Below are positions 23,723-40,865 of a stretch of DNA of 42,608 nucleotides, piece by piece. The position numbers and the translations under genes are program-made. The stretch is from Escherichia phage phiKT. Below the pieces are notes generated by a model. The model worked only from the letters and a program-made list of their open reading frames with translations, ran no database searches and was not told the origin of the DNA. Where the stretch lies: sequence record JN882298, one strand, 5' to 3'. Every line of letters begins with the position of its first letter. The stretch's first letter is position 1.

Positions 23723-24550
23723 ATGGGGTCTTCTGGTGGCGGTGCCTTGGGCGGTGCTGCTGGCGGTGCTGCTGCCGGGTTCTCTGTAGGGGGTCCGGCT
23801 GGCGCTTGGGTTGGCGGCGCTCTCGGCCTTGTCTCTGGCCTGTTCTCCGGTAACAAAGAGAAAGCTCAGGCCCGGATAGCGAACGCACAGCAACAAGCTC
23901 AGTACATCGTTCAGAACGCACAGGCTCAGGCTCAGACAATGCTGAGTCAGAACTCTGCGGCTGCTCAAAACTTGGTGGCATCGGGCAATAACTTTCTGGC
24001 AGCAGCCAATGAAAGCGTTGCCCTGTACACCCAATCTCTAAACAACCAGCGGTCATATAAGGCTACTGGAGAAGCATACAATGCCCTTCAGGAGTCTATT
24101 GGTCGTTACAGTGACGATTACCTTCGTGGCACATTCCAACAGCGCCTACAGGCTTCTGAGATGTTGGGACGCACAACGGCAGAGTTCGCTGCTGCCGGGG
24201 TTGGTGGTTCCACATCGCAACTCGTTAACCGGACCATGCGTCTTCAGGCTGGTGTGGCAGAAGAAGAGATGCGTATCGGTAATCGCTCGGCTATGTGGGA
24301 CTTCGCTAAACAGCGAGGGGCGCTCACTGACCAAGCAGTCGATGGTGTGCAGATGCTCGTCCAGCGTGATATGACGGGTTACGACCCTTCGGCTGGGTTC
24401 TACTTCGGTAACACTACGATAGGGCCACAGGCTCCTGTCGGTACTCAGAACCTTAATAGCTGGAGCAATACACTCGGTTCCGTACTCGGTTCCGGTATGT
24501 CTGCATATAATACCGTCCAAGGTATGAGCGCATTAAGTAAACTCAAATAG
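23723..24550 (+). CDS. Internal virion protein A (Gly-rich N-terminus)
   Basis: 275 aa; first of three consecutive internal-core genes as in T7 (gp14-like position). Confidence 0.6.
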   Translation: MGSSGGGALGGAAGGAAAGFSVGGPAGAWVGGALGLVSGLFSGNKEKAQARIANAQQQAQYIVQNAQAQAQTMLSQNSAAAQNLVASGNNFLAAANESVALYTQSLNNQRSYKATGEAYNALQESIGRYSDDYLRGTFQQRLQASEMLGRTTAEFAAAGVGGSTSQLVNRTMRLQAGVAEEEMRIGNRSAMWDFAKQRGALTDQAVDGVQMLVQRDMTGYDPSAGFYFGNTTIGPQAPVGTQNLNSWSNTLGSVLGSGMSAYNTVQGMSALSKLK

Positions 24551-24559
24551 TGAGGCTAT

Positions 24560-26869: not shown

Positions 26870-26888
26870 TAACACATAGGAACCTCCG

Positions 26889-29800
26889 ATGAACTATACA
26901 GAACTTCGTGGTAAAACCTCCGACGAAATCTTTGAGGCTGTTGCCAAAGACACGGGGGTTCCTACTCAACTGCTGAAGAACATGTGGCAGGTAGAATCTG
27001 GTGGTGGACAGAATATGAAGTCCCCCGCAGGTGCTGTCGGCCACATGCAAATTATGCCGCGCGAATTGGGCGTAATGCGTAAGACCTATGGTGAAGACCT
27101 CGACCCTATGAATTTGGCTGACTCGGTGTTTATGGCCGGGAAGATGCTCAAAGAAAACATGCAGCACTTTGGGAACATCCCCGATGCTGTATCCGCCTAC
27201 AACGGCGGGTGGACTAAATCCAAATGGAGTAACCCAGAGACTTCGGCATACACCCCGAAGGTTCTCGCCGGAACAGGAATTACTTTCGATGCACAAGGCA
27301 CCCCGCACGTCGAGCAACCCTACACAACGAGCCGTGCTCAGATTGATTCGGTTCGTCCTGAACCTGTTGTTCAAGCGAAAACCTACTTAAATTCTGTAGA
27401 GAAGAACGCTATTGAACAGCAGATGTACAATAAGCAGCTTCAGGGTACTGACACCAATGAAGTTGTTAATGAGGCTGTTCAATTAAGTTTTAACCCGGAG
27501 GCTGCATTCGGTCTGGCTGATAGCCTATCCACTACACCTCCGGCAACCTCCTATGACAGCGCCGACCAAGCCATCGCCCTTGATGTGCAGGCGTCAGTCA
27601 AAGAGGCCACCCGTATTGCGAACACTACTGCCGGAGATGCCTTCTCCGCAGGATTACAGCTATACACACTGTCAGGCACTGCTATGGAGGCGATGGCTAA
27701 TACCACCGCCGACATCATGGACAAGCGTCAGCAGGTGGACCGGGAGTGGATACGGAAGTACGAGGCAGAGCGTGAGCAGATGATTAAGGGTCTGTCTCCG
27801 TATGCTGTTACTCAACTGGACCAAGCCATTAACGCGCAGGAAGCGAAGGCCATTGTGGACCGTGATAAGCGTGACCAAGTGGCCCAACAGACCCTGAATG
27901 ATTCTGGTCATCCAATCCTCTGGGGCTTAGCCGCAGGTATTCTTGACCCGGCTGGCTGGGTTGTTGGTGGGGGTGTAGGCAAGGCATTTATGCTTGGTAA
28001 AAGCGTCAGCATGGCTGCTCGCATGGGTAAGTTGGCCGCAGGTAACGCCGCAGGTAACGTGGCCGTTACTGGTGCTATGGATTTGTTGGGTGGCCAGATT
28101 ACCCCTGACGACTATATCCATGCCGCTGCCTTTGGTTTGGCTACTGGTGCCGCTTTGGGAGCATTCTCTCGTGGCGACCGGGCGGCTATACAGCAGGCAG
28201 CAGCCGACATGCACGAAGCCGCAGCAGCACGTACCCAGACGTTCGTGGAACGCGCGGCGAAAGAGCACTACAAAATGTACGCTGGTGTGGACCCGTTCGA
28301 AGCCACTGACCCAAATGCAATCGTACAGCTTCATCGTGGGAACACTGACCCTAGTAATGGTCCGGTGTGGTGGACTACCGACCGGGCTAAGGCCGCTGGG
28401 GATGGGGATGTTGACAGTATCTGGGTACGGGCCTCCGATATACAAACTAAGGGGGTGGCTGGTCCTAACGGCCCTGATGAAGTGGTATTCCAGACTGACC
28501 CGCGTTCGTTTGCTGTAGGCGGACCGAGTGCTGAGGATTTGGCCCAGACAGCAGCTAAGATGTCCGAGCGTGAGGTTATGGATGTTGTTGACCAAGTGCT
28601 AACCCAACCTACTGCTGAATCCAAAGTATTCCAGCCACGGGACATTGACCCGGTAGAGACTGGTCGTATACAGCAGCAGTACAGTCTGGATAGTGTGGCC
28701 GATGAGCATCGCTTGTCATCCATCAACTCCCTGTACAAATCGGCTGAAGACTTCCTCGCTGCCAACAAGGATAAGCTCCGCCATATGGCCATTGCCAACC
28801 AAAAGCGTCGGACCATCTCCGATACCCTCGGCTGGCGGTCTGCTGGTAACGAACTTATTACCGATGACAACCCTCTGGCGAAGATTTTGGGCATGGTGGT
28901 AGCTGAGGATGCTGCGGGTGTTTCCGGTGTTCGTGGGGTTACTGTGGCGATTAAATCTCGCTTACTGAACAACCACGTTAACCTGAACATTGAGCGCGGT
29001 ATCCACGAGAACTACACCGCTTGGCTCAAGGATAAGGGCGTTGGTCGCGTTAAAGGTGCTTTAGAAACCTACACCACCGGGAAGAACATTACCGAGTTCT
29101 ATGCACAGGTTGCAGCAGAGATGCGTAACCGGGCCAATCCGATGTTCGTGTCTACTGCACCGCGTTCCGTACAGCGAGCAGCCAACGTATTGGAAGATGG
29201 GTTCCAGCGTATGGGTGACTTGCAGCGTAAGGCTAAGACTCTGGGGCACGAGTTCATACCAACCAGTTCCCGTGGCTACCTGCCGCAACAACTGAATGGT
29301 AAAGCATTCGCTGCCTTGTCCGGTGCTGAGAAGCGACAGGTACAGCAAGAGTTCATCCGTCAGGCTACCCGTGATTTTGGGTGGGATACAGAGTTCGCCT
29401 CTAAGAAGGTGGCCGAGTACATGAACCGTGCTGAGGATGCTGCTACGCCTGCTGGCCGGATGAATCCATCTGCTGGTAAAGACCTGATGGGTGTTCTGAT
29501 GGAAGAATTGGATAACCCTAATCTGGCTCCTGACCAGTACATGCAGATTCTTGAGCGTCTCCGTTCTGGTGCTGCAAAGCATACCAGCAAACGTCTTGAT
29601 TGGGATTTGAACGCGACTATCCGTATGGATAACGGTGACATGATTCCTCTGTCCTCCCTGTACAATAACGACGTCCTGTCGCTGTACAAAGGATACGCCA
29701 ACCGGGTGTCCGGTGACGTAGCATTCGCCCATGTAGGAATTTATGGCGACCGTGACATCCGTATGATTACCGAGGCACTACAAAGGAGCAAAGTTGGCGA

Positions 29801-31091
29801 CCCTACGAAAACCATCCCGGCTTGGCAGCAAATCGTCAACGAAGTTTACCAGCGCCCTACTGCCATTGACGCTGGTGGTAATCTCTCCACTTCTGCTCGT
29901 TTTATTCGTCAGTATACTGGCGTCCGTCTTCTTGGCGGCGTAGGCTTTGCGCAGATGGCAGAACTGTCTAACACCATCGCTCACTTGGGCGTAGGTACGT
30001 TTATGAAGTTCCTCCCATCCGTTCCGCGTCTACTGAAAGAGACAAAGATGCTCAAGGCTGGTCAGATACCAGAGAACAGTGTTATGTGGTCTGTAGACTC
30101 CATAGCAGGTTCTCCGTTAGGTGTAGAGCAGTTCCAGATGGTAATGCCACAGGTTATTGATGAGGGTCTGTCCATTGTTGACCAGCGTTCATTCAATACT
30201 GTGATGCGTGCTATGGGTGGTGCTCAGTTGCTGCACAACAAGTTCTCCTTCATGCGTGCTGTAACGGCGGTGGAGCAGCGTTTCGTTGGTGATGAAATCG
30301 TCAAAAAGGCTATGCGCTATATGCGTGATGGTACGGATGACGTGGCTTTACGTGAGATGGGTATCACACCAGAACTGGCGGCTAAGTTCCGTGCAGAGAT
30401 GGGGAACATTGCCGAGTTCACTGAGAGCGGTCACCTGAAGGCGTTGAACCTCTACCATATGAAGGATATGGATGCTGTGGCGGAGTTCATTACGGCGGTA
30501 CGTCGTGGGACCGGGCAAATCATTCAGGATACCTTCCCCGGCGAGACTGGTAAGTGGATGCGTTCTGAGATTGGTCAGTTGCTGATGCAGTTCCGTAAGT
30601 TCCCTTCCGTAGCCATTGAGAAGCAGTACATGCGTCAGTACGGTAAGTTTGGGTTCACCAAGGCTCTGGGTGGCACATTGGCTGCTATGGGTATTGGCAC
30701 CTTACTTTACTACGGTCGTGCTATGGTTGCTGCCTCCTTGCTCGGAGAGAGTGAGCGTGAGAAGTTCTTAGAAACCCGTCTGTCCCCAGCATCCGTAGCG
30801 GGAGGGGCGTTGATGTACGTATCCAACTTGGGTATGCTCAACGACTTCATGCAGCTTGGTAGTGGTGTCGGGAACATGCTGGACGACTCTATGGACTTAG
30901 GCTGGACCCACGGACGCGGTATCCCGGCACAAGGTATCGGTGGGGTAATCCCATCCCTTGGTACGCTGAGCGATACCTACAACCTGACTCAACAGCCTTC
31001 TGTGAACGGTGCGTTGAAACTACTCCCATTCACAAACTTACCTATGGTTCTTCCGGTAATCAATGCAATCAAGCATTCGGATGACGACTAA
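26889..31091 (+). CDS. Internal virion protein C with N-terminal lytic transglycosylase domain
   Basis: 1400 aa; N-terminal SLT-like motifs (WQVESGGG ... GAVGHMQIMP); position and size as T7 gp16. Confidence 0.8.
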   Translation: MNYTELRGKTSDEIFEAVAKDTGVPTQLLKNMWQVESGGGQNMKSPAGAVGHMQIMPRELGVMRKTYGEDLDPMNLADSVFMAGKMLKENMQHFGNIPDAVSAYNGGWTKSKWSNPETSAYTPKVLAGTGITFDAQGTPHVEQPYTTSRAQIDSVRPEPVVQAKTYLNSVEKNAIEQQMYNKQLQGTDTNEVVNEAVQLSFNPEAAFGLADSLSTTPPATSYDSADQAIALDVQASVKEATRIANTTAGDAFSAGLQLYTLSGTAMEAMANTTADIMDKRQQVDREWIRKYEAEREQMIKGLSPYAVTQLDQAINAQEAKAIVDRDKRDQVAQQTLNDSGHPILWGLAAGILDPAGWVVGGGVGKAFMLGKSVSMAARMGKLAAGNAAGNVAVTGAMDLLGGQITPDDYIHAAAFGLATGAALGAFSRGDRAAIQQAAADMHEAAAARTQTFVERAAKEHYKMYAGVDPFEATDPNAIVQLHRGNTDPSNGPVWWTTDRAKAAGDGDVDSIWVRASDIQTKGVAGPNGPDEVVFQTDPRSFAVGGPSAEDLAQTAAKMSEREVMDVVDQVLTQPTAESKVFQPRDIDPVETGRIQQQYSLDSVADEHRLSSINSLYKSAEDFLAANKDKLRHMAIANQKRRTISDTLGWRSAGNELITDDNPLAKILGMVVAEDAAGVSGVRGVTVAIKSRLLNNHVNLNIERGIHENYTAWLKDKGVGRVKGALETYTTGKNITEFYAQVAAEMRNRANPMFVSTAPRSVQRAANVLEDGFQRMGDLQRKAKTLGHEFIPTSSRGYLPQQLNGKAFAALSGAEKRQVQQEFIRQATRDFGWDTEFASKKVAEYMNRAEDAATPAGRMNPSAGKDLMGVLMEELDNPNLAPDQYMQILERLRSGAAKHTSKRLDWDLNATIRMDNGDMIPLSSLYNNDVLSLYKGYANRVSGDVAFAHVGIYGDRDIRMITEALQRSKVGDPTKTIPAWQQIVNEVYQRPTAIDAGGNLSTSARFIRQYTGVRLLGGVGFAQMAELSNTIAHLGVGTFMKFLPSVPRLLKETKMLKAGQIPENSVMWSVDSIAGSPLGVEQFQMVMPQVIDEGLSIVDQRSFNTVMRAMGGAQLLHNKFSFMRAVTAVEQRFVGDEIVKKAMRYMRDGTDDVALREMGITPELAAKFRAEMGNIAEFTESGHLKALNLYHMKDMDAVAEFITAVRRGTGQIIQDTFPGETGKWMRSEIGQLLMQFRKFPSVAIEKQYMRQYGKFGFTKALGGTLAAMGIGTLLYYGRAMVAASLLGESEREKFLETRLSPASVAGGALMYVSNLGMLNDFMQLGSGVGNMLDDSMDLGWTHGRGIPAQGIGGVIPSLGTLSDTYNLTQQPSVNGALKLLPFTNLPMVLPVINAIKHSDDD

Positions 31092-31093
31092 AT

Positions 31094-31122
31094 GGTGGGC
31101 TTCGGCCCACCTCTATTTTATT
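31094..31122 (+). terminator. Rho-independent terminator/attenuator before the tail fiber gene
   Basis: 7-bp stem ggtgggc/gcccacc with ttcg loop followed by tctattttatt. Confidence 0.6.
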
Positions 31123-31132
31123 GGAGATTTTG

Positions 31133-33916
31133 ATGGCTATTACGTTTTATGCTACCAACAACTTCACTGGTGATGGTACTACCGTAAACTGGAATATTAA
31201 CTTCGCAGACGGTTACATCGACACCACCGACGTGAAGGCGCGGTATCTGGATAATACCGGGAGCTACGTTGACATCGCTATTTCAAGCGTGGCAGGAAAC
31301 GTAGTAACCATTTCCCCGGCTGTGGCGGACGGTCAGGAGTTCCAAATCTATCGTGATACAGAGAAGCGGTTCCCGCTGGTGGACTTCTCTGACGGTGCAA
31401 TCCTCAACGAGACTAACCTTGACACGCTGGCTACCCAGGCTGTGATGGTATCCGCTGAGGCATTCGACCAATCTAACAACGGTGTACGTATTGCTGGTGA
31501 TTCCTTGACTATCGCGCAAGGTATCGACGCCAAGGCACAGCTGGCTCTGGACAACTCCGAGGCTGCTGTAGCTACAGCGAACGGTATCGACGGTAAAGCG
31601 CAGACGGCATTGAATACCGCCGCCGCCGCTGTCGCCACGGCTAATGCTGCCACATCTACTGCTGCTGGTGCTGTATCTACGGCCAACACCGCACTGTCTA
31701 CTGCCAACGATGCCGCCGATGACGCAGCTACCGCTGTCACTACCGCTAACGCCGCTGTGACTACGGCCAATGCTGCAACCACTACGGCCAACGCCGCTAG
31801 TGCTGCCGCCTCTGCTGCAACGACTACTGCGAACAATGCTGCAAACGACGCTGCTACTGCTGTGTCTACTGCGAATACGGCCTTGTCTACTGCGAACACC
31901 GCATCTACCAACGCCTCTACCGCTGTGTCCACGGCTAACGCCGCTAAGGCTACTGCTGAGGGTATCGAGGCTAAAGCGGATTCTGCTTTGGCAGCTTCTG
32001 CTAACGCTGTGACCACAGCTAACGCAGCTGAGGCTACGGCTAATGCTATCGACGGTAAGGCTACGGACGCACTAAACACTGCTGATGCCGCTGAGGCTAC
32101 GGCTAATACTGCCGCTGCTACTGCGAGTTCGGCTGCTGCTGACGCCAGTACCGCTTTGAGCACAGTTACTGCTGCTGACACAAAGGCACAGACTGCTCTG
32201 GATAATATCGCGTCTCTGGATGCGGCCACCATGAAGAAAGCAGCTAACCTGTCTGATATTGCGGATAAGGCGGCTGCATGGCTTAACGTCCGTCCAATTG
32301 GCTCCACGCCATTGGCAGGCGACCCGGTAGGTGACTACGATGCTGTTACTAAGCGTTGGGTAGAGAACCTGATTAACACAGGTACTGTTGGTCCGACCAT
32401 GAATGGTGTGATGAACTACGGCGTTGGTGATTTTCATCTTCGTGATAGTCGCGCATACATTCAGCCGTATGAGGTTGTATCCGACGGTCAATTACTGAAC
32501 CGCGCTGATTGGCCTGAACTTTGGTCTTATGCGCAAATGTTGTCGCCCATCACCGATGCAGACTGGCTTGCTGACCCGCAAAAGCGCGGCAAGTATTCAC
32601 TAGGTAACGGCGCAACAACATTCCGCGTACCGGACCGCAACGGGGTTCAGGCAGGTTCAATAGCTGCATTGTTTGGCCGTGGTGATGGCGGGGTGTCATC
32701 TAGTGATGGGACAATTCTTGACAGTGCTGCACCAAACATTACAGGCTCATTTGGCCGATTGGTTTACGCGTCAACAGGCACTATTTATGAAGGAAACACA
32801 GGGACAGGTGCCTTCTCTGCTTTCTCACCACAAGCAAAATATAAAAAGATGTCAGACCTATCTTCAATTGATGCTCAGGCAGCGGAATATCCTTCTGGGT
32901 ATGAATTCTTCGCATCAAATTCAAGCCCGGTCTATGGTAGAGGTTCAACAGAAGTCCGACCCAAAGCATTCACTGGTGTTTGGGTGATTCGCGCATCTGG
33001 TGGATTTGTTGCTGCGAATACCCTGTGGAGTGTTATTAATGGCGATGCTACTAAACCCGCTAACAACACAAGTGTTAACGGTGGAGAGATTCAGTCTGAA
33101 TACCGTATTGGTACTCAGGTTGAAGGTAAAACATCTCTGCGATTTGTCGGTACTATCGGTCAGGCTTATGCTGCGCGCCTGAACGTATCAAATAACTCAA
33201 ATACTAATGCCTTTATCTACGATTTCGATGAGTATGGTCGGGTTAACTTCGGCAAACCGGGTGGTGTGATCAAATCTGGTGATATTACTCTGGATATGGC
33301 ATCCAACGGCGATTTCTACGTTACCACAACCCGTTTACGTGTAGAACACCCTACCTCTGGTGGTCAGACTATGGGGATATCCACTCAAGGTGGGGCCAAC
33401 CGTGGTGCTGATCAGGGGTGGTTTGAGCACTGGGGTAACTCCTATGGCGGTGGTTCTGACAAATCTCGTGCAACTGTTGTTGAACTTAAGATTGGTACTG
33501 GTTATGCGTGGTACAGTCAGAAACTAGCGAGTGGCGTATATGAAACCAGATTTGCAAGTGCAATCTATGCAACTGCATTCACTCAAAACTCTGATGAACG
33601 TATCAAGGAAAACATCGAGCGTATTAGCGATCCGTTGGAAAAGATGAAGCAAATTAAAGGTGTTTCATGGAATTTTAAAACGGTTGGTAATGCAAAAGGT
33701 TACGGCTTTATCGCACAGGATGTGGAAAGGGTACTCCCTGAAGCTGTAAGTGTCGGAGGTGGTGAACTGGAACTGACTGACGGTACTAAGGTATCCGATG
33801 TTAAATCGGTAAACACCAGCGGTGTGGCTGCTGCACTCCACCACGAAGCTATCCTAGCTTTGATGGATAAGGTTGAGGCTCTGGAAGCACGCATTGCAGA
33901 ACTAACTTCTCAGTAA
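31133..33916 (+). CDS. Tail fiber protein (T7 gp17-like anchor, Ala/Thr heptad stalk, collar-type receptor-binding region, C-terminal intramolecular chaperone)
   Basis: Track ORF 31121..33916; ATG at 31133 with GGAG RBS; N-terminus (QIYRDTEKRFPLVDFSDGAILNE) resembles the T7 gp17 anchor; tail-collar-like motif (GNGATTFRVPDRNG); last 108 aa (SDERIKENIERISD...) resemble the S74 chaperone domain. Confidence 0.8.
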   Translation: MAITFYATNNFTGDGTTVNWNINFADGYIDTTDVKARYLDNTGSYVDIAISSVAGNVVTISPAVADGQEFQIYRDTEKRFPLVDFSDGAILNETNLDTLATQAVMVSAEAFDQSNNGVRIAGDSLTIAQGIDAKAQLALDNSEAAVATANGIDGKAQTALNTAAAAVATANAATSTAAGAVSTANTALSTANDAADDAATAVTTANAAVTTANAATTTANAASAAASAATTTANNAANDAATAVSTANTALSTANTASTNASTAVSTANAAKATAEGIEAKADSALAASANAVTTANAAEATANAIDGKATDALNTADAAEATANTAAATASSAAADASTALSTVTAADTKAQTALDNIASLDAATMKKAANLSDIADKAAAWLNVRPIGSTPLAGDPVGDYDAVTKRWVENLINTGTVGPTMNGVMNYGVGDFHLRDSRAYIQPYEVVSDGQLLNRADWPELWSYAQMLSPITDADWLADPQKRGKYSLGNGATTFRVPDRNGVQAGSIAALFGRGDGGVSSSDGTILDSAAPNITGSFGRLVYASTGTIYEGNTGTGAFSAFSPQAKYKKMSDLSSIDAQAAEYPSGYEFFASNSSPVYGRGSTEVRPKAFTGVWVIRASGGFVAANTLWSVINGDATKPANNTSVNGGEIQSEYRIGTQVEGKTSLRFVGTIGQAYAARLNVSNNSNTNAFIYDFDEYGRVNFGKPGGVIKSGDITLDMASNGDFYVTTTRLRVEHPTSGGQTMGISTQGGANRGADQGWFEHWGNSYGGGSDKSRATVVELKIGTGYAWYSQKLASGVYETRFASAIYATAFTQNSDERIKENIERISDPLEKMKQIKGVSWNFKTVGNAKGYGFIAQDVERVLPEAVSVGGGELELTDGTKVSDVKSVNTSGVAAALHHEAILALMDKVEALEARIAELTSQ
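31510..32280 (+). repeat. Heptad-coded Ala/Thr repeat tract inside the tail fiber gene
   Basis: Protein shows more than 13 consecutive heptads of the form [ST]TAN.A. plus longer repeated units (ATANGIDGKAQTALNTA-like), from imperfect 21-bp DNA repeats. Confidence 0.7.
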
Positions 33917-33925
33917 GGAGAGCAG

Positions 33926-34297
33926 ATGTCCGACTTCGAAGAAGAGGATGTCACACAGGAAGAGAACGGGTCTTCGGACCTGTTCAAACCCTTAGAGACT
34001 ATCCCCGGCGCTACCGCCAACCGGGACCAGATGGCAGAGCTACACCAGCTTATCTGCATCGCCCTGTCCGCACGTATCCGGGCAGGTATCTGGTCCTCCG
34101 GCGATATTGCCGCAGCTACAAAGTTCCTGAAGGACAACAACGTCACTGCCGATGTTGGCGACAACAAGGCACTCCAGAAACTCCGCGATGAGATGGAGAC
34201 TAAGCAGAAGGCACGTCGTGAAGAACGGACGTATCTCTCTGAGCAGGAACTCGTCAAACTCGCAACGGAAGAACTGAATAACGAGATATGGCACTAA
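33926..34297 (+). CDS. Terminase small subunit
   Basis: 123 aa acidic protein immediately upstream of, and overlapping, the terminase large subunit. Confidence 0.55.
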   Translation: MSDFEEEDVTQEENGSSDLFKPLETIPGATANRDQMAELHQLICIALSARIRAGIWSSGDIAAATKFLKDNNVTADVGDNKALQKLRDEMETKQKARREERTYLSEQELVKLATEELNNEIWH

Positions 34298-36093
34298 GAG
34301 AATCAGCAGAAAGAGAAGAACAACGGCTACTTGAACTCGCAGCACTGCGGGACATGTACCCCACGTTCCTACCGTTTCTGATTGATTTCATGGTGATGCT
34401 CGGATTCTTCGTCACACCGGTACAGAAGCTCATTGCTCAATTCCTTGAGTACGGGCCTCTGTATCGGATGGTGCAGGCCCAGCGTGGTCAGGCGAAGACT
34501 ACCATCACAGCCGCATATGCAATCTGGCGACTTATCCACGATACCAACCTTGCCGTGTTGATCGTCTCGGCAGGGGGCAAGCAGGCGAACGAGATTTCAA
34601 CTCTCATCGTCCGCTCGTTCAAAACGTGGGATAGGCTGGCCTGCATGTGTCCTGACGCCTCTATGGGCGACCGTGAGTCAGTCGAAGCATTCGACGTTCA
34701 CTACAACTTAAAGAGGCTGAATAAATCTCCATCCGTGGCCTGTACTGGTATCACGGGTAACTTGCAGGGTAAACGTGCGGGTCTGCTTATCGCGGACGAC
34801 GTTGAGTCCCAGAAGAACTCCCTGACTGCGGTCATGCGTGAGAACCTCCTGAACCTGACTCGTGACTTTACCTCAATATGCTCCACCGGGGATATTATCT
34901 ACCTCGGTACACCACAGACTACAGAATCAATTTATAACACCTTGCCGGGGCGTGGCTTTACTGTCCGCATCTGGCCGGGACGTTTCCCTAACGCAGAACA
35001 GGTGGAAGCCTACGGCGACCAGCTATGCCCTGTCTTTAGGATGAAGATTGCTTCACGCCCTGACCTGACTACAGGCTACGGGCCGGATGGGCTTCAGGGT
35101 GCTCCGGTTGACCCGGTAATCCTTGGTGAAGCCTTCCTGAACAAGAAAGAGATTGACCAAGGGACTGCATACTTCCAGTTGCAGCACATGCTTCAGACGC
35201 GCCTGATGGATGCTATGCGCAAGCCATTACACGCAGAGAAGCTGATTGTGGCCCAACTGCCGAAGCGGGACGGTCTGTTCCCTATCACCATTACGCGAGA
35301 AATCTCTGTACAAGCCTACATGCGCCGAAACGTCCTGAGCAAGCCTCTGGTATTCGGTGTGCCCGGTAGCGTGTCTAAGGACGTCGCTACGCTTCAGGGC
35401 GTATGCTTCTACATCGACCCCGCTGGTGGTGGTAAGAACGCGGATGAAACTGCATTCGCTTGTACCGGGTTCCTGAACTCCAATATCTTCTTGCTGGATT
35501 GGGGCGGCTTACCGGGCGGATATGCCCCGGATGTTATGACCGCTCTCGCCCAACGTGTGTTTGAAGTGCGGCCCAATGTTGTCAAAATCGAAAAGAACTT
35601 CGGTTACGGCGTTCCGCGAAGTATGGTTGCCGTACCTCTGGGCCATTTTGATAAAGCTGGTGTTAACCGTCCCGGCGTAGAGGACGATATGGTACACGGC
35701 CAGAAGGAGAAGCGAATCATTGATACGCTTGAGCCTGTAATGGGTCGTGGCTCGCTCATTGTTGACGAGCGTCTCATCAAGGAAGACGAAGACCAGACCA
35801 TGCGGTACAGCGCACAAATGCGTGTGACGTACTCCGGGTTCCTACAGATGGTTAATATCTCCTACGACAAAGATGCGTTGGTGCATGATGACCGACTGGA
35901 TGCTTTGGAAGGAGCGGTTCGTCATTGGCAGGATTGGCTGGCCAAGAACCAAGAGAAGGCCATTCAGGCTCAACGGAAACGTGAGTTCGAAGAGTGGCAG
36001 AAAGACCCGATGATGAAGAAGCGTTGTCAGTCCGTGAAGGAATACAATGCTGGTCGTCGTGGTAAAACCATGTTTGATAAGAGAAAACGCTAA
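34288..36093 (+). CDS. Terminase large subunit
   Basis: 601 aa; ATPase P-loop-like segment (QRGQAKTT) and C-terminal nuclease-type acidic motifs; position as T7 gp19. Confidence 0.85.
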   Translation: MALRESAEREEQRLLELAALRDMYPTFLPFLIDFMVMLGFFVTPVQKLIAQFLEYGPLYRMVQAQRGQAKTTITAAYAIWRLIHDTNLAVLIVSAGGKQANEISTLIVRSFKTWDRLACMCPDASMGDRESVEAFDVHYNLKRLNKSPSVACTGITGNLQGKRAGLLIADDVESQKNSLTAVMRENLLNLTRDFTSICSTGDIIYLGTPQTTESIYNTLPGRGFTVRIWPGRFPNAEQVEAYGDQLCPVFRMKIASRPDLTTGYGPDGLQGAPVDPVILGEAFLNKKEIDQGTAYFQLQHMLQTRLMDAMRKPLHAEKLIVAQLPKRDGLFPITITREISVQAYMRRNVLSKPLVFGVPGSVSKDVATLQGVCFYIDPAGGGKNADETAFACTGFLNSNIFLLDWGGLPGGYAPDVMTALAQRVFEVRPNVVKIEKNFGYGVPRSMVAVPLGHFDKAGVNRPGVEDDMVHGQKEKRIIDTLEPVMGRGSLIVDERLIKEDEDQTMRYSAQMRVTYSGFLQMVNISYDKDALVHDDRLDALEGAVRHWQDWLAKNQEKAIQAQRKREFEEWQKDPMMKKRCQSVKEYNAGRRGKTMFDKRKR

Positions 36094-36329
36094 TGACTAT
36101 TGCTGCACAACTCCCAGACCCGAAGCTCGACGTTAAGGGCGACCGACTGCGTTTCCTGTTGGCCGCTTGTATCAGCGAGTGTAATATCCAAGCAGACAAC
36201 GGTGCGTATGATAAAGGCACCAGCTTCAAAGCCCTGCTTACTGCCGCTGCTGCACTCGTGAAGGTAGCTCCGGTAGAACCTGAAGACCCGGAAGACCCTG
36301 AAGACCCTGAAGACCCTGAAAACCCGTAA
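36093..36329 (+). CDS. Small hypothetical protein with C-terminal PEDPEDPEDPEDPENP repeat
   Basis: TAATG overlap with the terminase stop; C-terminus encoded by five tandem 9-bp units. Confidence 0.4.
   Translation: MTIAAQLPDPKLDVKGDRLRFLLAACISECNIQADNGAYDKGTSFKALLTAAAALVKVAPVEPEDPEDPEDPEDPENP
36283..36327. repeat. 5 x 9-bp tandem repeat (gaagaccc[g/t])
   Basis: Tandem units read directly in the sequence; encodes the (PED)n tail of the 36093..36329 ORF. Confidence 0.85.
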
Positions 36330-36372
36330 GAATAATACAATTGGCCAAGGACGGCTATTGAGGAACCTATTT

Positions 36373-36660
36373 ATGCGTATCGACGATATCTGCTCACCCG
36401 GTTTTGTACCTAACTCCCACCGTCTTCGTCAGGAGACTGTCCGGGCCATTGCTTTCTGTGAAACCATAGGAAGCGCTGAGAAGGCCGTAGAGCTACAGAA
36501 ATACTTTCGTGAGGCTATCGAATACCTTGACCGAGAAATTGTCTCCAGCGGCTTGCCAGAGAGCGAGAAGCCTATTGTGGATGCTGATGCTGTGTCACCA
36601 TTCGATGAGGAAGAAGTTGTGGCCGAGCCGAAACCTAAAGCCAAAGGAGGCAAGAAGTGA
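36373..36660 (+). CDS. Hypothetical acidic protein upstream of the endolysin
   Basis: Track ORF 36358..36660; ATG at 36373 with GAGGAA RBS; no transmembrane segment seen. Confidence 0.45.
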   Translation: MRIDDICSPGFVPNSHRLRQETVRAIAFCETIGSAEKAVELQKYFREAIEYLDREIVSSGLPESEKPIVDADAVSPFDEEEVVAEPKPKAKGGKK

Positions 36661-37109
36661 ATCTGACCGCAGCGGAGAAGTTAGTTCGACATTTTGAAGG
36701 TCTGAAGTTAGAAGCGTACCTGTGCCCTGCTGGTAAGTGGACTATCGGGTACGGACAGACCAAGGGTATTAAGGAAGGTATGGTGTGGACCAAGGCTCAG
36801 GCCGAAGCAGATATGTCTGCCACTGTCCGACGCTTTGCCGAAGAAGTACGTCAACTGGTCCGCAAGGATACGACCGACGCTGAACTAAGCGCATTCACTT
36901 CTCTGGCCTATAACATCGGTACTCCAAACTTTAAGACGTCCTCTGCTCTGCGTTGGCATAATGCCCGTGAGTCCGCGTCCAAGGTGTGCGCTGGTATCCG
37001 TATGTGGAACAAGGCCACCGTCAATGGTAAGAAGATTATCCTGAAGGGTCTGGTACGTCGCCGAGAGGCTGAATGCTCCGTATACACAACTGGAGACTTT
37101 AATGAGTAA
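36657..37109 (+). CDS. Endolysin, phage lysozyme (GH24 T4-lysozyme-like muramidase)
   Basis: N-terminus MNLTAAEKLVRHFEGLKLEAYLCPAGKWTIGYGQT aligns with the T4 lysozyme catalytic Glu/Asp/Thr region; GTG start overlapping the upstream stop. Confidence 0.85.
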   Translation: MNLTAAEKLVRHFEGLKLEAYLCPAGKWTIGYGQTKGIKEGMVWTKAQAEADMSATVRRFAEEVRQLVRKDTTDAELSAFTSLAYNIGTPNFKTSSALRWHNARESASKVCAGIRMWNKATVNGKKIILKGLVRRREAECSVYTTGDFNE

Positions 37110-37272
37110 ATTCAAGAAATATCTGGGTGCCGCATGGGATTTCACCAAGGAACATGGTGTGACTATCCTGCGTGGTGTGGCTGTCCTCCTTGTAGGTCGT
37201 AAGGTTGGTCGCGTTGCCAACCAGTCCGCCGATGTACTTGATACGGTCATCAAAGGGACTAAGAAGAATTAA
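37102..37272 (+). CDS. 56-aa small membrane protein (possible holin/antiholin-type lysis accessory)
   Basis: ATG overlapping the endolysin end; one hydrophobic segment (GVTILRGVAVLLVG); below the ORF-track cut-off. Confidence 0.35.
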   Translation: MSKFKKYLGAAWDFTKEHGVTILRGVAVLLVGRKVGRVANQSADVLDTVIKGTKKN

Positions 37273-37281
37273 AGGATAGCC

Positions 37282-37665
37282 ATGTTCGAAGGCACCGGGA
37301 ACTACGGTTCCCTTGTGACCACCCTCCTTACGGGAGCAGTGGCGGCTCAAACCTCTTATCAGGTATCCCGTATAGTCACACATGATTCTCTGTTATTAGT
37401 TGGCATCCTCTGCGTCATCGGTATCGTGGTAGGTCTGGGCCATGCTCTCTCAAGCAAGTCCCCTCTCCCATTCCGTCGTATCGTAGGCAAGGTGCTTATG
37501 TCTACTGGCGTGGCCGTTACAGCCGCTGCCGTCTATTACTTCAAACCAAGTACCGACCCGTTAGTCGTCATTGCCATTGGCGCTGGGTTAAGCGTCATGG
37601 GTTCTGGCTGGCTGGAAGAGTTCGTCCGGAACAGAACAGGAACCAAGAAGGATGATGGTAGTTAA
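37282..37665 (+). CDS. Holin-like multi-pass membrane protein
   Basis: 127 aa with about three hydrophobic segments and a charged C-terminal tail; adjacent to the endolysin. Confidence 0.5.
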   Translation: MFEGTGNYGSLVTTLLTGAVAAQTSYQVSRIVTHDSLLLVGILCVIGIVVGLGHALSSKSPLPFRRIVGKVLMSTGVAVTAAAVYYFKPSTDPLVVIAIGAGLSVMGSGWLEEFVRNRTGTKKDDGS

Positions 37666-37720
37666 AAGCTCTCAGAAGCTCTACAACGCTCTCAAGGACG
37701 AGAGCAATACGATGTTACCA

Positions 37721-37795
37721 CCTGACCCTGATTAGATGCCTGATGACTTCATTAGCACGTTTTAAGTTGATTCCTGATTAGATGATTAGCTAGTC
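37721..37795. repeat. Direct repeats of cctgattagatg and related attag units
   Basis: cctgattagatg at ~37727..37738 and ~37773..37784, with additional attag copies between. Confidence 0.6.
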
Positions 37796-37810
37796 CACAG
37801 AGGGCAGTCC

Positions 37811-37854
37811 TAAAATTTGATATAATTTTGTGAGGGGGCAGTCCAACACAAATG
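37811..37854. repeat. Direct repeat (a)gggcagtcc flanking an AT-rich palindrome
   Basis: agggcagtcc at ~37811..37820 and gggcagtcc at ~37846..37854 flank taaaatttgatataatttt. Confidence 0.5.
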
Positions 37855-37886
37855 AGGTCGCGTTTCCCCCGTAGGCCCGGCCTTCT

Positions 37887-37958
37887 GGATGGCTGAATGG
37901 CTGGATGGATGGATGGCTGGACGGCTAGACGTTTAGACGGCTAAATGGCCAAATGACC
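37887..37958. repeat. Tandem array of nine imperfect 8-bp units (consensus ggatggct)
   Basis: ggatggct gaatggct ggatggat ggatggct ggacggct agacgttt agacggct aaatggcc aaatgacc read in strict 8-nt register. Confidence 0.8.
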
Positions 37959-38017
37959 GTAAAAAAGGGCCGTGTGCACTGATAGGGTCAATCGGGCTGT
38001 AGGTCGCGCCAACCGGA

Positions 38018-38044
38018 GTTTCCGCACATTACTTTATAAGGGAG
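38018..38044 (+). promoter_or_regulatory. Phage RNAP promoter-like motif, copy 2
   Basis: gtttccgcacattactttataagggag; matches 14534..14560 except for one substitution and one indel. Confidence 0.5.
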
Positions 38045-38134
38045 CTTGTAAGGTGTCTGGCGGCGATCCGTCTGACGACGGGAGAAGGGAAGAGACGTGG
38101 GGTATCTATCTTTTTGTGATTAGTGTTAGTTGTG

Positions 38135-38165
38135 TATCTATCTATCTATGTATGTATGTATATCC
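38135..38165. repeat. Tetranucleotide microsatellite (tatc)3(tatg)3
   Basis: tatctatctatctatgtatgtatgtata read directly. Confidence 0.8.
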
Positions 38166-38209
38166 GGCTATCCTTTATCTGCGCTGCGACGGGCCAGCTA
38201 TCGCTTTCC

Positions 38210-38239
38210 TTGTCTTCGCTACGATAAGGAAGCTATAAT
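38210..38239 (+). promoter_or_regulatory. Sigma70-type promoter candidate driving the 38279 mini-operon
   Basis: -35 TTGTCT, 18-nt spacer, -10 TATAAT (perfect); ~40 nt upstream of a strong-RBS ATG. Confidence 0.5.
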
Positions 38240-38278
38240 AGGGATTGTATTATTGCTCTTTAATAATGAGGTGAGATT

Positions 38279-38482
38279 ATGGCTATACGTAATTGGATGG
38301 CGGTTATGGCTATTGTGGATAGTGTGGGGATTGAAGCGGCGTTAGCCTTGCCATACGTTCCGCCGGATTCTAACACTATGCCGGGCCGTGCCGAACGTTA
38401 TGCAATTGAGTACAACATACAACGGGGGAAGTATGGCGAGACCATGCCGGAAGTATCGACGTCGTGCACTCATCGGGATTGA
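38279..38482 (+). CDS. Hypothetical small protein (first gene of the left-end mini-operon)
   Basis: GAGGTGA RBS before the ATG; 67 aa; atypical codon usage; overlaps the next ORF. Confidence 0.35.
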   Translation: MAIRNWMAVMAIVDSVGIEAALALPYVPPDSNTMPGRAERYAIEYNIQRGKYGETMPEVSTSCTHRD

Positions 38483-38873
38483 TGTATCGGGGTATCATCC
38501 GCCGGCTGTAGTCCGGGACTGGTTAAGGGATACTTTAAGGGATGACTCCAAGGGACTAGCCGATCAGCTTATTTGTAAACCGTGGGCTGTATGGTTAGTG
38601 TGGGCGCATGATGAAATCACTAGTAAGCGGGTTCGTCTTCTCTGCTGTGTAGGGGAGCGACAAGCGCTATACATAATGGATTATGCGGCCCGGCTTGATG
38701 GGTATCTGTGCCGACTGTATCAATCCGACGGTGACGTGATTGATATTAGTCATCTGTCCGAGTGTCAATCGGTGCATAACTGGACCGGATACTGGCGACA
38801 CGTCAACGGCGAAAGTAAGCCGATGACGATTAGTGACGATGGATTGAGAAAGCTGCGGGAGCTGATAGCATGA
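38433..38873 (+). CDS. Hypothetical protein (second gene of the left-end mini-operon)
   Basis: Track ORF 38388..38873; ATG at 38433 after a GGGGG stretch; stop is followed directly by a terminator hairpin; atypical codon usage (cgg, agt, tta, ata). Confidence 0.4.
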   Translation: MARPCRKYRRRALIGIDVSGYHPPAVVRDWLRDTLRDDSKGLADQLICKPWAVWLVWAHDEITSKRVRLLCCVGERQALYIMDYAARLDGYLCRLYQSDGDVIDISHLSECQSVHNWTGYWRHVNGESKPMTISDDGLRKLRELIA

Positions 38874-38877
38874 CGAT

Positions 38878-38914
38878 AAGGGGCCGGGAGTGTATCCTTG
38901 CCCCTTTCTTTTTT
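38878..38914 (+). terminator. Rho-independent terminator after the 38433..38873 ORF
   Basis: Stem aaggggc(cggga)/(tcctt)gcccctt followed by tcttttttg. Confidence 0.6.
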
Positions 38915-39079
38915 GTCCTGGACAAACCGCTACATTCTGGATGTATGTTGTACGCATAATCTCTTGCGTTCTCCTGATCGGGCTTATGCACTCATGGGTA
39001 TACGTTGGCTTGTCTTACGTGTGATTAGGTGTCTGGTGAGAACGTGGGAGATTATTTTCGATTATTTTTAAATATTCGC

Positions 39080-39108
39080 TTGCACTATCCGAAAACGTCG
39101 CGTATAAC
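39080..39108 (+). promoter_or_regulatory. Sigma70-type early promoter candidate
   Basis: -35 TTGCAC, 17-nt spacer, -10 TATAAC; AT-rich UP-like element upstream (ttttcgattatttttaaatatt). Confidence 0.5.
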
Positions 39109-39368
39109 TATCTACATCAGGACGGGCAAGGCAATACGGACTGAAGGAGGAGGCGCAACGGAAGGCGCGACACGGCGGGAGTGATACAAGGACGCGCCAA
39201 GGGGGAACGGATAGGAACTGCGAAGCCTGCCGGATACCCGCTAAGGAAAGCAACGTTTGCCGGAGTATGCAGACACGGCAAACAAATAAAAGTAGTTCGG
39301 GAGGCAAGGATAGCCCACGTAGTGGCTGCCGATAGCGTATGAAGTATCGGATAACCGAACGAAAGCGA

Positions 39369-39397
39369 TTGACACGTTAAGCAATATGCCGTAATTT
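39369..39397 (+). promoter_or_regulatory. Second sigma70-type early promoter candidate (weaker -10)
   Basis: -35 TTGACA (perfect), 17-nt spacer, -10 TAATTT. Confidence 0.3.
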
Positions 39398-39755
39398 AGA
39401 TAACAAGCAGTACAGCAACATTACAGCAAACTAGAATAGTTTGAGTCGCATTGAGTGCGGATAGCTGACCTGACAGCGATATGATTCAGGGGGGCCGGAG
39501 GTTAGATAGGACGTCGCCAATAAGCCTGATAAACAAAACACTGTTTATCTAATGCTACTCATTGAGCGGCATTATATAAGCAACAAGCGCGGGGGAGTCC
39601 TACCAGCACAACGCGCTTTATAAATCAAGGCCACACGACGTCGTAAAATGACGGGAAAGGTCAGGAGTGTAGGCGCGGCGGTCGCCCGTGTAGTATCAAA
39701 GATACAGCGACCAACTAAACCAAATCACTTAAACGCAACGTAAACGAGGCGCACA

Positions 39756-40250
39756 ATGAAAGTATTAATTTCTGCATTCCGTAAAGAAAACGACCTGCTG
39801 ACTCATATCAACAATCACGCAGAACTGTACGACCGCATTGCAGCGTTGGGCCTGACACCACAGCCCGTCGATGGCGTGTGGAAAGGTGTCAGCGAATTTT
39901 CTTACATGGTACACGGTGTAACCGCAGCGATGGTAAAAGCGTTTTATGCAATGGCCCGCGACTACAATCAGGAGGCTATCTTGCTTGTTGCTGATGATAA
40001 CCGTGCCGCAGTAGTACCGACCGATGGCCCGGCAATGGCCCCGATGATTGACGTCGGCGACTGGAGGGAAGTCAGTAAAGAGATCGCCATACAGTTCGAC
40101 GGGTACACCAAGACACGCGACGGCCGCTATTTTGTCGCAGCCACTCGTGAGCAGTTTGGCCTCGCCACTCGTCGGCTGTTAGCCACACAGCCGGGCGTGA
40201 TCGCAGCTAACGAGTATGCCGCACGTGTAAACGCAGTGGGAGGATTATAA
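39756..40250 (+). CDS. First early protein of the main early operon, function unknown
   Basis: GAGG RBS; 164 aa; first ORF after ~650 nt of leader. Confidence 0.6.
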   Translation: MKVLISAFRKENDLLTHINNHAELYDRIAALGLTPQPVDGVWKGVSEFSYMVHGVTAAMVKAFYAMARDYNQEAILLVADDNRAAVVPTDGPAMAPMIDVGDWREVSKEIAIQFDGYTKTRDGRYFVAATREQFGLATRRLLATQPGVIAANEYAARVNAVGGL

Positions 40251-40251
40251 A

Positions 40252-40500
40252 ATGCGCAAACTTAGTGAAATTGTACATCATACCCACGTATTCTATAACA
40301 GCAAGGGTTATCTGTGGATAACCCTGAAGGAAGTGCGACCTGACGGGCGTCGTCGTGTGGTAGTACGTAAAATGAACAGCAAATACTTCAGTAATTGGTC
40401 ATTGGATACAGTACGCATTAATAACGAGACTTTTCAGATTGACTCACAGATTGACCTACAACCAACGGCAAGCCATTCCGCACCATATTTCTCCAACTGA
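40252..40500 (+). CDS. Early hypothetical protein (basic)
   Basis: GGGAGGA RBS; ATG one nt after the upstream stop; 82 aa. Confidence 0.5.
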   Translation: MRKLSEIVHHTHVFYNSKGYLWITLKEVRPDGRRRVVVRKMNSKYFSNWSLDTVRINNETFQIDSQIDLQPTASHSAPYFSN

Positions 40501-40515
40501 ATCCGGGCCTATGCC
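40497..40515. repeat. 19-nt motif ctgaatccgggcctatgcc, copy 1 (followed by a hairpin)
   Basis: Identical 19-mer recurs at 40881..40899; both copies lie at or just after a stop codon. Confidence 0.7.
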
Positions 40516-40622
40516 GCGCACTCATGGGCGGCAAATGCCTTGTCTTATAGTGTACCAGTGGATACCTACACAGTGGCGTAGGTATCAGCAGATACATTAA
40601 TCAAAAACACAGAGGTAACACC

Positions 40623-40865
40623 ATGCAAACTATTATCACCAAATACCACGGCGCTACCAGCACACGCGGGGGCCGTATCGTTGCCAAATACTGGAACGGT
40701 AAAAAAACGGTATCATACGACCACAGCCTGAATGCAGACGCTAACCATAAGGCCGCAGCCGATGCACTCATCGCCGACCTGAAGGCGCGTACAGGCAGCG
40801 ACTGGTCCATCATTGCAGCTGGTTGCCTACCAGACCACACGGGGTACGCGTTTATCATCGAGTAA
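40623..40865 (+). CDS. Early hypothetical protein
   Basis: GAGGT RBS; 80 aa. Confidence 0.5.
   Translation: MQTIITKYHGATSTRGGRIVAKYWNGKKTVSYDHSLNADANHKAAADALIADLKARTGSDWSIIAAGCLPDHTGYAFIIE

Follow-up and report, generated by a model that had tools for sequence, protein, structure and literature searches.

A previously undescribed kissing-loop RNA in the early leaders of phage phiKT and other enterobacterial Autographiviridae

A kissing-loop RNA in the early leader

We analysed the genome sequence of Escherichia phage phiKT (record JN882298; 42,608 nucleotides (nt), called the window throughout), focusing on positions 38915-39755, between the terminator of a small upstream transcription unit and the first main early gene. 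This region forms the early leader of a phiKT/PGT2-like podophage and is read by the polymerase of the host. Within it, at 39199-39285, lies an 87-nt RNA that represents a previously undescribed, well-supported family of structured RNAs, borne on cassettes among enterobacterial Autographiviridae. We describe here its fold, the compensatory conservation of that fold, its strand, its placement and the mobility of its cassette. Coordinates are window positions unless another sequence is named, and the features of the region are collected in Table 1.

Escherichia phage PGT2 (genus Ermolevavirus, Autographiviridae) is closely related to the window, with 94.7% identity over 93% of the first 20 kb and 91% identity around 38915-39755. 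The PGT2 genome note, which covers the sister phage phiKT, reports a 260-bp terminal repeat and is silent on the leader region (PMC5773715). In the alignment, base 1 of PGT2 falls at position 37842, and the window is circularly permuted with respect to the phage genome. The distance from the leader to the physical left end is therefore 1.07-1.9 kb, which places it, as in the T7 group, no more than 1-2 kb past the terminal repeat. The physical left end with its repeat is at ~37842, and the window itself begins in the middle of the early/DNA-metabolism region.

The 87-nt RNA consists of four helices (P1-P4) and a 5-bp loop-loop, or kissing, helix. Helices P1-P4 were recovered by single-sequence folding both of the window (−29 kcal/mol, z −3.1) and of phage BA14. 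Our covariance model of the element, R1, scored 103.9 bits on the window (E = 7e-24), and 26 of 26 modelled pairs form in the window sequence. We assessed covariation in 17 distinct sequences, including eleven loci added by scanning IMG/VR viral contigs with R1 and a motif. Across this set, 97.1% of pair cells were paired, and 11 of the 26 pairs had changed on both sides. Controls in which the whole structure was slid were 26-44% paired, and none of 500 shuffles reached the covariation score. MAFFT alignments, which were not fitted to R1, gave the same covariation picture.

The kissing helix was paired at all five positions in every one of the 17 sequences (slid controls, 12-45%). It also covaried: we observed CUGCG/UGCAG in the window, CCGCG/UGCGG in phage Minorna and CCGAG/UUCGG in the BA14 type, whose P4 loop is otherwise unrelated. 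Outside helix P4 there were at least seven separate compensatory events (helix P1 had two, P2 and P3 one each, the kissing helix two or three), with more in P4. Because members are 80-100% identical and derive from few lineages, these covariation statistics are indicative rather than formal.

G-U pairs occur in helices P2 and P4 and in the kissing helix, and would be A-C mismatches on the opposite strand; the functional strand is therefore that of the early transcript. A function of the minus strand or of the duplex DNA was considered and is unlikely, given that these pairs are specific to the plus strand. The P3 loop occurs in six variants (AAGGAA, ACGGAU, AGGGAA, AAGGAUGAG, AAGGAUAA and AACGGAUAA) whose constant part is A-N-GGA only. 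An invariant 10-mer, GGAUAGGAAC (39209-39218), is present in the window as in the rest of the family.

Table 1. Features of the phiKT early leader and its borders, in window coordinates
Feature	Position	Strand	Description
Intrinsic terminator of upstream small transcription unit	38878-38914	+	Hairpin 38878-38906, then U run
Promoter P1	39060-39108	+	AT-rich 39060-39079; -35 TTGCAC 39080-39085; 17-nt spacer; -10 TATAAC 39103-39108
Purine/GGA-rich transcript of first cassette	39115-39368	+	67% purine, 16 GGA, 11% T
Module A, GGA-rich	39146-39198	+	Shared only with PGT2 and Minorna; includes GCGC-AACGGAAG-GCGC and GAUACAAGGACG
Kissing-loop leader RNA, 87 nt	39199-39285	+	Four helices P1-P4 and a 5-bp loop-loop helix
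Helix P1	39201-39203 with 39237-39239	+	4x4 internal loop between P1 and P2
Helix P2	39208-39210 and 39212-39215 with 39226-39232	+	One bulged A; 10-nt loop 39216-39225
Helix P3	39240-39242 with 39249-39251	+	Loop AAGGAA 39243-39248 (GCU-AAGGAA-AGC)
Helix P4	39255-39262 with 39276-39283	+	13-nt loop 39263-39275
Loop-loop (kissing) helix	39218-39222 with 39268-39272	+	CUGCG with UGCAG; joins P2 and P4 loops
Second short A-N-GGA-loop hairpin	39303-39315	+	GGC-AAGGAUA-GCC; in Minorna a GGG...CCC hairpin with loop AGGGAAAG
Hairpin H5	39329-39350	+	CCGAUA-GCGUAUGAAG-UAUCGG; loop conserved, stem varies
Promoter P2	39369-39397	+	TTGACA (39369-39374), 17-nt spacer, TAATTT (39392-39397)
Leader-2 hairpin	39427-39443	+	CAAAC-UAGAAUA-GUUUG; PGT2 CAGCC...GGUUG, a compensatory change
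Palindrome RNA hairpin	39528-39549	+	6-nt loop; homology with PGT2 stops here
Shine-Dalgarno GAGG	39746-39749	+	
First main early gene	39756-40250	+	SAM lyase, 164 aa

Distribution, placement and cassette exchange

BLAST searches found 264 nt of the surrounding purine-rich tract at 87-88% identity in phage Minorna (Drulisvirus, another subfamily), and a core of ~90 nt at 83-88% identity in P1338, Carena and nasanit (Berlinvirus). All of these homologues sit in unannotated leader DNA ahead of an early gene, which encodes Ocr, S-adenosylmethionine (SAM) lyase or a hypothetical protein. BA14, 285P, P694 and others carry a more diverged form. The BA14-type cassette was found by BLAST in 45 GenBank records, from phages of Escherichia, Shigella, Yersinia, Citrobacter, Serratia, Klebsiella and Hafnia, and the records are unannotated at the cassette or show spurious small open reading frames (ORFs) there. 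To these the window type contributes PGT2, Minorna, P1338, Carena and nasanit, for a total of ~50 GenBank phage records in at least four named taxa. Because the neighbouring SAM lyases are just 25-27% identical (window versus Carena/BA14), the RNA has moved independently of the genes beside it.

Placement within the leader was consistent. A strong promoter of the form TTGACA-17/18-TAnnnT lies directly upstream of the element in 15 of 15 other members examined, and a promoter follows 14-87 nt past helix P4 in 13 of 16 (window included). The RNA begins 8-85 nt after the predicted transcription start: ~8 nt in the BA14 and Carena types, 23 in P1338, 65 in PGT2 and Minorna, where module A precedes it, and ~84 in the window. 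No other member has so long a distance, since in the window module A and a further 30 nt precede the element.

BA14 and the viral contig L086 carry the element and the promoter that follows it as an insertion of ~145 nt, which is missing from the IMG/VR contigs L079 and L080 despite SAM lyases that are 99-100% identical. The cassette carriers BA14, 285P and P483 thus form natural with/without pairs with these two cassette-free contigs. Homology between the window and PGT2 is confined to blocks at 37842-39084, 39146-39285, 39361-39538 and from 39730 onward, separated by unrelated sequence or by additional small genes, and the first block ends at 39084, between the -35 and -10 elements of promoter P1. 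Breakpoints between related phages fall inside promoters, either between -35 and -10 or just past -10 (window 39084/39085; ~722 in the BA14 sequence, L072; L079). This position of the breakpoints makes the leader a mosaic of promoter plus RNA-module units, exchanged at promoter homology, and suggests that the similar early promoters may serve as recombination sites for swapping leader modules.

The element was confined to phages in our searches. Its motif had 0 matches in the 185,579 genomes of bacteria and archaea that were scanned, and 5,426 E. coli genomes likewise held no BLAST match to the tract; a copy or mimic of a host sequence was ruled out by these two empty searches. Rfam gave no match at gathering thresholds (whole window), at E ≤ 10 (38850-39800) or at E ≤ 1 (four homologous loci), and ARAGORN found no tRNA or tmRNA. 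The literature that we searched contained no report of the 87-nt RNA; the supplements of a catalogue of phage structured RNAs (PMC10690425) lay outside that search. R1 found no element in T7 and T3 (best E 0.26) or in several T7-like contigs. Its best sub-threshold match outside the family was in the T7 A2 leader (L143 614-720; 10 bits, E 0.26), the positional counterpart of the element, and this match is probably noise. A pattern scan of viral contigs with GGAGTATGCNGACACG gave chance matches only; in a first pattern scan of metagenomes, a single match, on a Minorna-like contig, was true and the rest were chance. A riboswitch controlling the SAM lyase was also rejected: no SAM class of Rfam matched, a promoter stands between element and gene, and the element precedes ocr and other genes as well.

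The surrounding leader

The upstream border is a convincing terminator, as a reading made earlier from the sequence alone had proposed; its hairpin folds at −18.4 kcal/mol (z −3.56; 0 of 200 shuffles as good) and is followed by a U run. The same sequence-only reading saw no credible ORF in 38915-39755, and our analysis agreed, with the largest ORFs there 51-79 aa long and none with a PHROG match. Each plus-strand frame of 39115-39755 contains 8-19 stops. Between the window and PGT2, the 29 substitutions over 39361-39538 are divided 10/10/9 among codon positions and come with two 1-nt insertions or deletions (indels); the window and Minorna differ by two 1-nt indels within 39146-39285. A hidden small protein was rejected on the strength of the frame-breaking indels, the even distribution of substitutions over codon positions and the lack of any PHROG or Pfam match for nine leader ORFs.

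Both sigma70-like promoters proposed for the region are present where they had been placed. By consensus alone they are not above chance: both failed a sigma70 consensus scan, which found 4 sites against 4.4 in shuffles. Their support comes from homology. Promoter P2 has homologues in PGT2 (TTGACA-17-TAACCT) and Minorna (TTGACA-17-TAACTT) and is of the same type as the annotated BA14 host promoters and T7 A2/A3. Promoter P1, from which a transcript is predicted to start near 39115, has its -35 and AT-rich upstream stretch in common with PGT2, where the -10 is TATAGT. It is the weaker call and fails the scan because its -10, TATAAC, lacks the final T.

The leader had been thought long for a compact phage, but those of T7, T3 and BA14 measure 427, 422 and 547 nt, and that of the window is ordinary for the group. 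In T7 the host promoters A1-A3 lie at 498, 626 and 750 and gene 0.3 at 925, and T3 and BA14 are arranged alike. Because these leaders resemble one another (422-547 nt, 57-58% purine, U-poor), the length, the absence of genes and a mild purine bias are unremarkable. Like the leaders of T7 and T3, that of the window is ORF-free, mildly purine-rich, U-poor and near the left end, and the gene that comes next has an anti-restriction role (ocr in T7; SAM lyase in T3 and the window). Of its two putative sigma70 promoters, P2 fits the TTGACA-17-TAnnnT form of the group, and P1 has TTGCAC and TATAAC instead. T7-like members of the RNA family carry the element inside a T7-type promoter array, whereas T7 and T3 themselves lack it. 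T7 and T3 also differ from the window in carrying a boxA and, by the T3 annotation, the R0.3 site after the last promoter, neither of which is in the window leader, and in their low frequency of GGA.

A perfect rrn-type boxA, GCTCTTTAACAA, follows all host promoters in T7 (813), T3 (781), BA14 (L072 939), Carena, 285P and several viral contigs. In T3 the annotated R0.3 RNase III site follows it at a distance of ~40 nt, and T7-like leaders contain sequence similar to that site. This placement suggests that Nus-factor antitermination may act on T7-group early transcripts. We found no boxA within two mismatches in 38915-39755, and the T7-group arrangement of boxA and R0.3 between the last promoter and gene 0.3 is absent from the window. 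A boxA-like sequence, GCTCTTTAATAA, occurs at 38255-38266 on the plus strand, 16 nt past the -10 of a promoter-like site (38210-38239) and just before the ribosome-binding site of the ORF at 38279.

The purine-rich tract that had been noted at 39118-39310 was borne out: at 69.4% purine it is the maximum among all 190-nt segments (mean 52.3%, sd 4.1). No part of the window is richer in GGA than the tract, which reaches 15 per 230 nt where the mean is 3.75. In the transcript segment 39115-39368, GGA is the top trinucleotide, observed 16 times where a first-order Markov model expects 8.4 (P = 0.006). The segment has 16 GGA in 254 nt, or 6.3 per 100 nt, at 67% purine. Comparable values are 1.6 for the window background, 1.7 (59% purine) for the second half of the leader (39404-39755) and 0.7-1.2 (57-58% purine) for the leaders of T7, T3 and BA14. 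E. coli CsrB has 22 GGA in 369 nt, or 6.0 per 100 nt, at 64% purine. GGA positions are predicted to be unpaired more often than other positions (0.67 versus 0.47), and the tract contains three short hairpins with A-N-GGA loops, namely P3 and those at 39153-39169 and 39303-39315.

In the window, PGT2 and Minorna, the kissing-loop element is set within extra GGA-rich modules, A and C. Module A is nearly identical in these three phages, so its covariation is uninformative. The loop of hairpin H5, GCGUAUGAAG, is identical in all three, on stems that differ: CCGGUG/CACCGG in Minorna (L002 1199-1220) and GGUAAUG/CAUUACC in PGT2 (L001 1400-1423). H5 always stands ~20 nt ahead of a TTGACA promoter. 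Its loop resembles that of P4, and the motif GNGUAUGMAG occurs at just these two places in the whole window; a search by eye found no pairing partner for the H5 loop. Throughout the leader, C minus G ranges from −0.24 to +0.08. With G roughly equal to or above C, such a composition is unfavourable to the loading of Rho on untranslated RNA.

Shuffles fold less well than the second half of the leader (z −2.5), where compensatory change against PGT2 has kept at least two hairpins, that at 39427-39443 and the palindrome. This half contains the perfect 8-bp palindrome, gataaaca (39528-39535) and tgtttatc (39542-39549) separated by 6 nt, exactly as described in the sequence-only reading, which had suggested that the region could encode an operator or an RNase III site. 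The palindrome folds at −8.7 kcal/mol against −1.5 ± 1.4 in shuffles (z −5.09; 0 of 200 as good), far above chance, and an RNase III site is annotated in the T3 leader, with similar sequence in T7-like leaders. However, PGT2 has at this position a hairpin of altered stem and loop, AACAAAC-GAAAG-GUUUGUU. A stem that changes while its pairing is kept behaves as a conserved RNA hairpin and argues against a sequence-specific DNA operator. We identified no RNase III-type site or R0.3-like hairpin in 38915-39755, and an 8-bp A/U-rich stem is too short for RNase III. With boxA missing there too, we consider a protein operator on the DNA, or a leader with an RNase III processing site, very improbable. 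What stands of the earlier proposal of a structured leader or small non-coding RNA is a structured, non-coding leader that contains a discrete conserved RNA; the key element is the pseudoknotted RNA at 39199-39285 and not the palindrome.

The gene that follows the leader (39756-40250) encodes a SAM lyase, an anti-restriction enzyme of the gene 0.3 type (Pfam PF23780, E = 2e-24). The enzyme shares 96% identity with PGT2 gp05 and 25-27% with that of the T3/BA14 type, and a related-loci search with it as query returned PGT2 alone. The PGT2 leader has three small ORFs (gp02-gp04) that are missing from the window. A 30-nt segment containing the ribosome-binding site (window 39730-39759) is duplicated at both edges of the gp03-gp04 insert (L001 2097-2126 and 2657-2686), and this duplication looks like a recombination footprint. 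In the upstream small unit, candidate ORFs of 67 aa (38279-38482) and 161 aa (38388-38873) overlap. PGT2 annotates one gene there, the 67-aa gp01 (L001 453-656), which matches the 67-aa ORF in position. PHROG had no match for either ORF, and Pfam none for the 161-aa ORF.

Candidate functions of the kissing-loop RNA

We tentatively propose that the 87-nt RNA may be a self-contained early decoy RNA with CsrA as its most likely target, a reading we regard as possible rather than probable; CsrA sponging is our leading guess for its function. The leader consists of exchangeable units, each a sigma70 promoter with a structured RNA, and the purine-rich tract is the transcript of the first. In the folded RNA, two long hairpins (P1-P2 and P4) are locked by the 5-bp loop-loop helix, and P3 between them displays its A-N-GGA loop. 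The RNA would act in trans, being made in the first minutes of infection ahead of any phage protein. Host RNases may free it from the leader, in T7-like members via the downstream R0.3 site; in T7, cleavage at R0.3 releases leader RNAs as free molecules. Once free, it could decoy a host RNA-binding protein that recognises GGA, most likely CsrA, and in the window, PGT2 and Minorna the flanking GGA-rich modules would lift the number of sites to the density of CsrB. Removal of CsrA might then free GGA-containing ribosome-binding sites of phage mRNAs or disturb host control.

Several observations are consistent with a CsrA decoy. The element usually stands before the last promoter, so many transcripts lack it, as would be expected of an added RNA gene more than of an element that controls the genes downstream. 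In contrast, the cis-acting boxA of T7-like leaders lies downstream of all promoters and so is on every transcript. The window tract resembles CsrB in GGA density (6.3 versus 6.0 per 100 nt) and purine content (67 versus 64%). As in the Csr/Rsm sponges CsrB, CsrC and RsmZ, its GGAs are predicted to be preferentially unpaired, and it has short hairpins with A-N-GGA loops. Proteins of the CsrA/RsmE type reportedly hold RNA as a 3-bp stem that bears an A-N-GGA loop, the RsmE-bound hcnA structure being described as a 3-bp stem with an ACGGAU hexaloop. The sequence GAUACAAGGACG (39183-39194) fits 10 of 12 positions of what we take to be the CsrA consensus from systematic evolution of ligands by exponential enrichment (SELEX), RUACARGGAUGU. 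Between the window and Minorna there are 26 substitutions, with 0 in the 42 GGA positions (P = 0.011).

A number of results weigh against this reading. The GGA substitution test is confounded, the GGA-dense first 100 nt being nearly identical in the window and Minorna; for the diverged part alone we estimate P ~ 0.06. A CsrB-like regular array of stem-AGGAU-stem units was looked for and not found: 5 of 16 GGAs lie in simple short-hairpin loops, versus 14 of 22 in CsrB, a fraction equal to the window background (0.33-0.37) and no higher than in shuffles (P = 0.11). Covariance models of CsrB, CsrC, RsmX, RsmY and RsmZ gave no match, with cut-offs as loose as E ≤ 10 for the window and E ≤ 1 for four homologous loci. 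BA14-type members have 3 GGAs only and no GGA-rich flanks. No terminator-like site or other defined 3' end after helix P4 was present on the plus strand of 39115-39755. The RNA thus differs from the Csr/Rsm sponges in sequence and model similarity, in lacking a terminator and in its pseudoknotted core, and also in being encoded by lytic phages behind early phage promoters. Moreover, the tight kissing-loop fold and the invariant GGAUAGGAAC exceed the needs of a simple sponge. The authors of PMC7553319 invoke likely pleiotropic or surface effects, and that attribution offers no positive ground for supposing that a phage gains from losing CsrA; such a benefit is not obvious.

An alternative is action in cis, in which the nascent folded RNA would stay on host RNA polymerase or trap Rho, so that early transcription resists pausing or termination, as with HK022 put or Rho-antagonising leaders. 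This would secure the early genes across a long untranslated leader and perhaps, by analogy with T7, whose genome entry is driven by transcription, entry of the genome itself. The 640 nt of untranslated leader RNA are a natural Rho target, the leader has no boxA of its own, and its values of C minus G give the impression that Rho avoidance matters. The put RNAs of HK022 are ~70 nt long, form two stems and lie just downstream of an early sigma70 promoter (PMC9378689). The element likewise follows the predicted start of an early sigma70 promoter by 8-85 nt in every member and is about the size of put; like putL and putR, it is a phage RNA of ~70-90 nt that forms two long stem-loops and that host RNA polymerase makes with no need for a phage protein (PMC9378689). 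We nevertheless found no homology to put, as R1 had no match in the HK022 early region (best E 0.6; 0.63 with filters off on HK022 24000-40751). Unlike put, the element has kissing loops and carries a further hairpin with GGA; it is present in some but not all phages of its group, and usually lies upstream of further promoters. This last position argues against a put-like modification of polymerase: with a strong downstream promoter in 13 of 16 members, many early transcripts would never carry the element. T7-like members already have boxA past all promoters, close relatives manage without the element, and action in cis leaves the invariant A-N-GGA loop and the GGA-rich flanks unexplained. On balance, we judge it unlikely, if arguable. 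A purely passive role is rather improbable. Here, structure and a G-rich, U-poor composition would shield the 5' end from RNase E, exclude Rho or space promoters, and the unit would spread by virtue of the promoter it adds. The likewise purine-rich, U-poor leaders of T7, T3 and BA14, the strong promoter that the cassette always carries or adjoins, the breakpoints inside promoters and C minus G at or below 0.08 along the whole leader would all fit. Yet for a stabiliser a hairpin would do, and there would be no need of a covarying loop-loop helix, or of an A-N-GGA loop and a 10-mer that never vary. GGA is 5-9 times as dense as in other T7-group leaders, and ~8 unpaired nt ahead of helix P1 leave the 5' end unsealed.

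The RNA might instead be an anti-defence decoy with a target other than CsrA. As the earliest product of the incoming genome, it would mimic or block the RNA ligand of some host immunity system; RNA-binding nucleases, reverse-transcriptase systems and toxin-antitoxin RNAs are examples. Such a decoy would need no translation and would suit a compact, specific fold that is accessory, horizontally mobile, missing in close relatives, found in lytic phages only (absent from the bacterial and archaeal genomes scanned and from the E. coli BLAST) and placed in the early region immediately ahead of anti-restriction genes (SAM lyase or ocr). However, Rfam and ARAGORN detected no similarity to a known antitoxin, CRISPR repeat, tRNA or retron RNA, a mimic of host RNA should resemble bacterial genome sequence and this one resembles none, and we can name no target; we give the idea little credence. 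Less credible again is the absence of any function beyond the promoters, with the likeness of members due to recent horizontal transfer and the structure a by-product. Members are indeed close in sequence and few in independent lineages, and related sequences can beat every shuffle even without structure. Against this stand the separate compensatory events in helices P1, P2 and P3 and the kissing helix, with more in P4; the BA14-type P4, which differs in sequence yet keeps its stem and its complementarity to its own P2 loop; and the drop in pairing in the slid controls. We consider this explanation quite improbable.

Other phage RNAs offer partial parallels. Candidate non-coding RNAs derived from the 5' untranslated regions of virulent phages by ONT-cappable-seq and Grad-seq are conserved within genera of Pseudomonas phages and are defined by RNA ends (PMC10914365, PMC8545117). 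The kissing-loop RNA is likewise a small non-coding RNA from the 5' end of a phage transcript; it differs in being defined by covariation, in crossing genera and subfamilies and in being known here from sequence alone. With its loop-loop pairing, which could form within one molecule or between molecules, it also recalls another phage RNA. The packaging RNA of phi29 functions through Watson-Crick pairing between two hairpin loops, in DNA packaging and in another phage group. The two have no sequence relation, and expression from an early host promoter does not suggest packaging.

To our knowledge, no function has been assigned to the early-leader RNA of T7 relatives, and the early leader is left unannotated in almost every genome record, though the T7 group is among the best-studied viruses. 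T7-type early promoters and leaders are reused as parts in phage engineering, where the element would go along unnoticed. Part of this leader is a discrete, covariation-supported, pseudoknotted RNA that crosses phage genera, which makes it a testable candidate for host takeover or counter-defence at the level of RNA. It may be a mobile, protein-free RNA gene of lytic T7-like and phiKMV-like phages, the first product of the entering genome, which would disable a host protein by sponging CsrA or blocking an immunity factor and so form the RNA-only counterpart of the adjacent anti-restriction genes; we offer this as a doubtful but defensible view. If the CsrA idea is true, this would be the first CsrA sponge in a lytic phage known to us. 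Should it prove wrong, a new RNA family is defined by the fold all the same.

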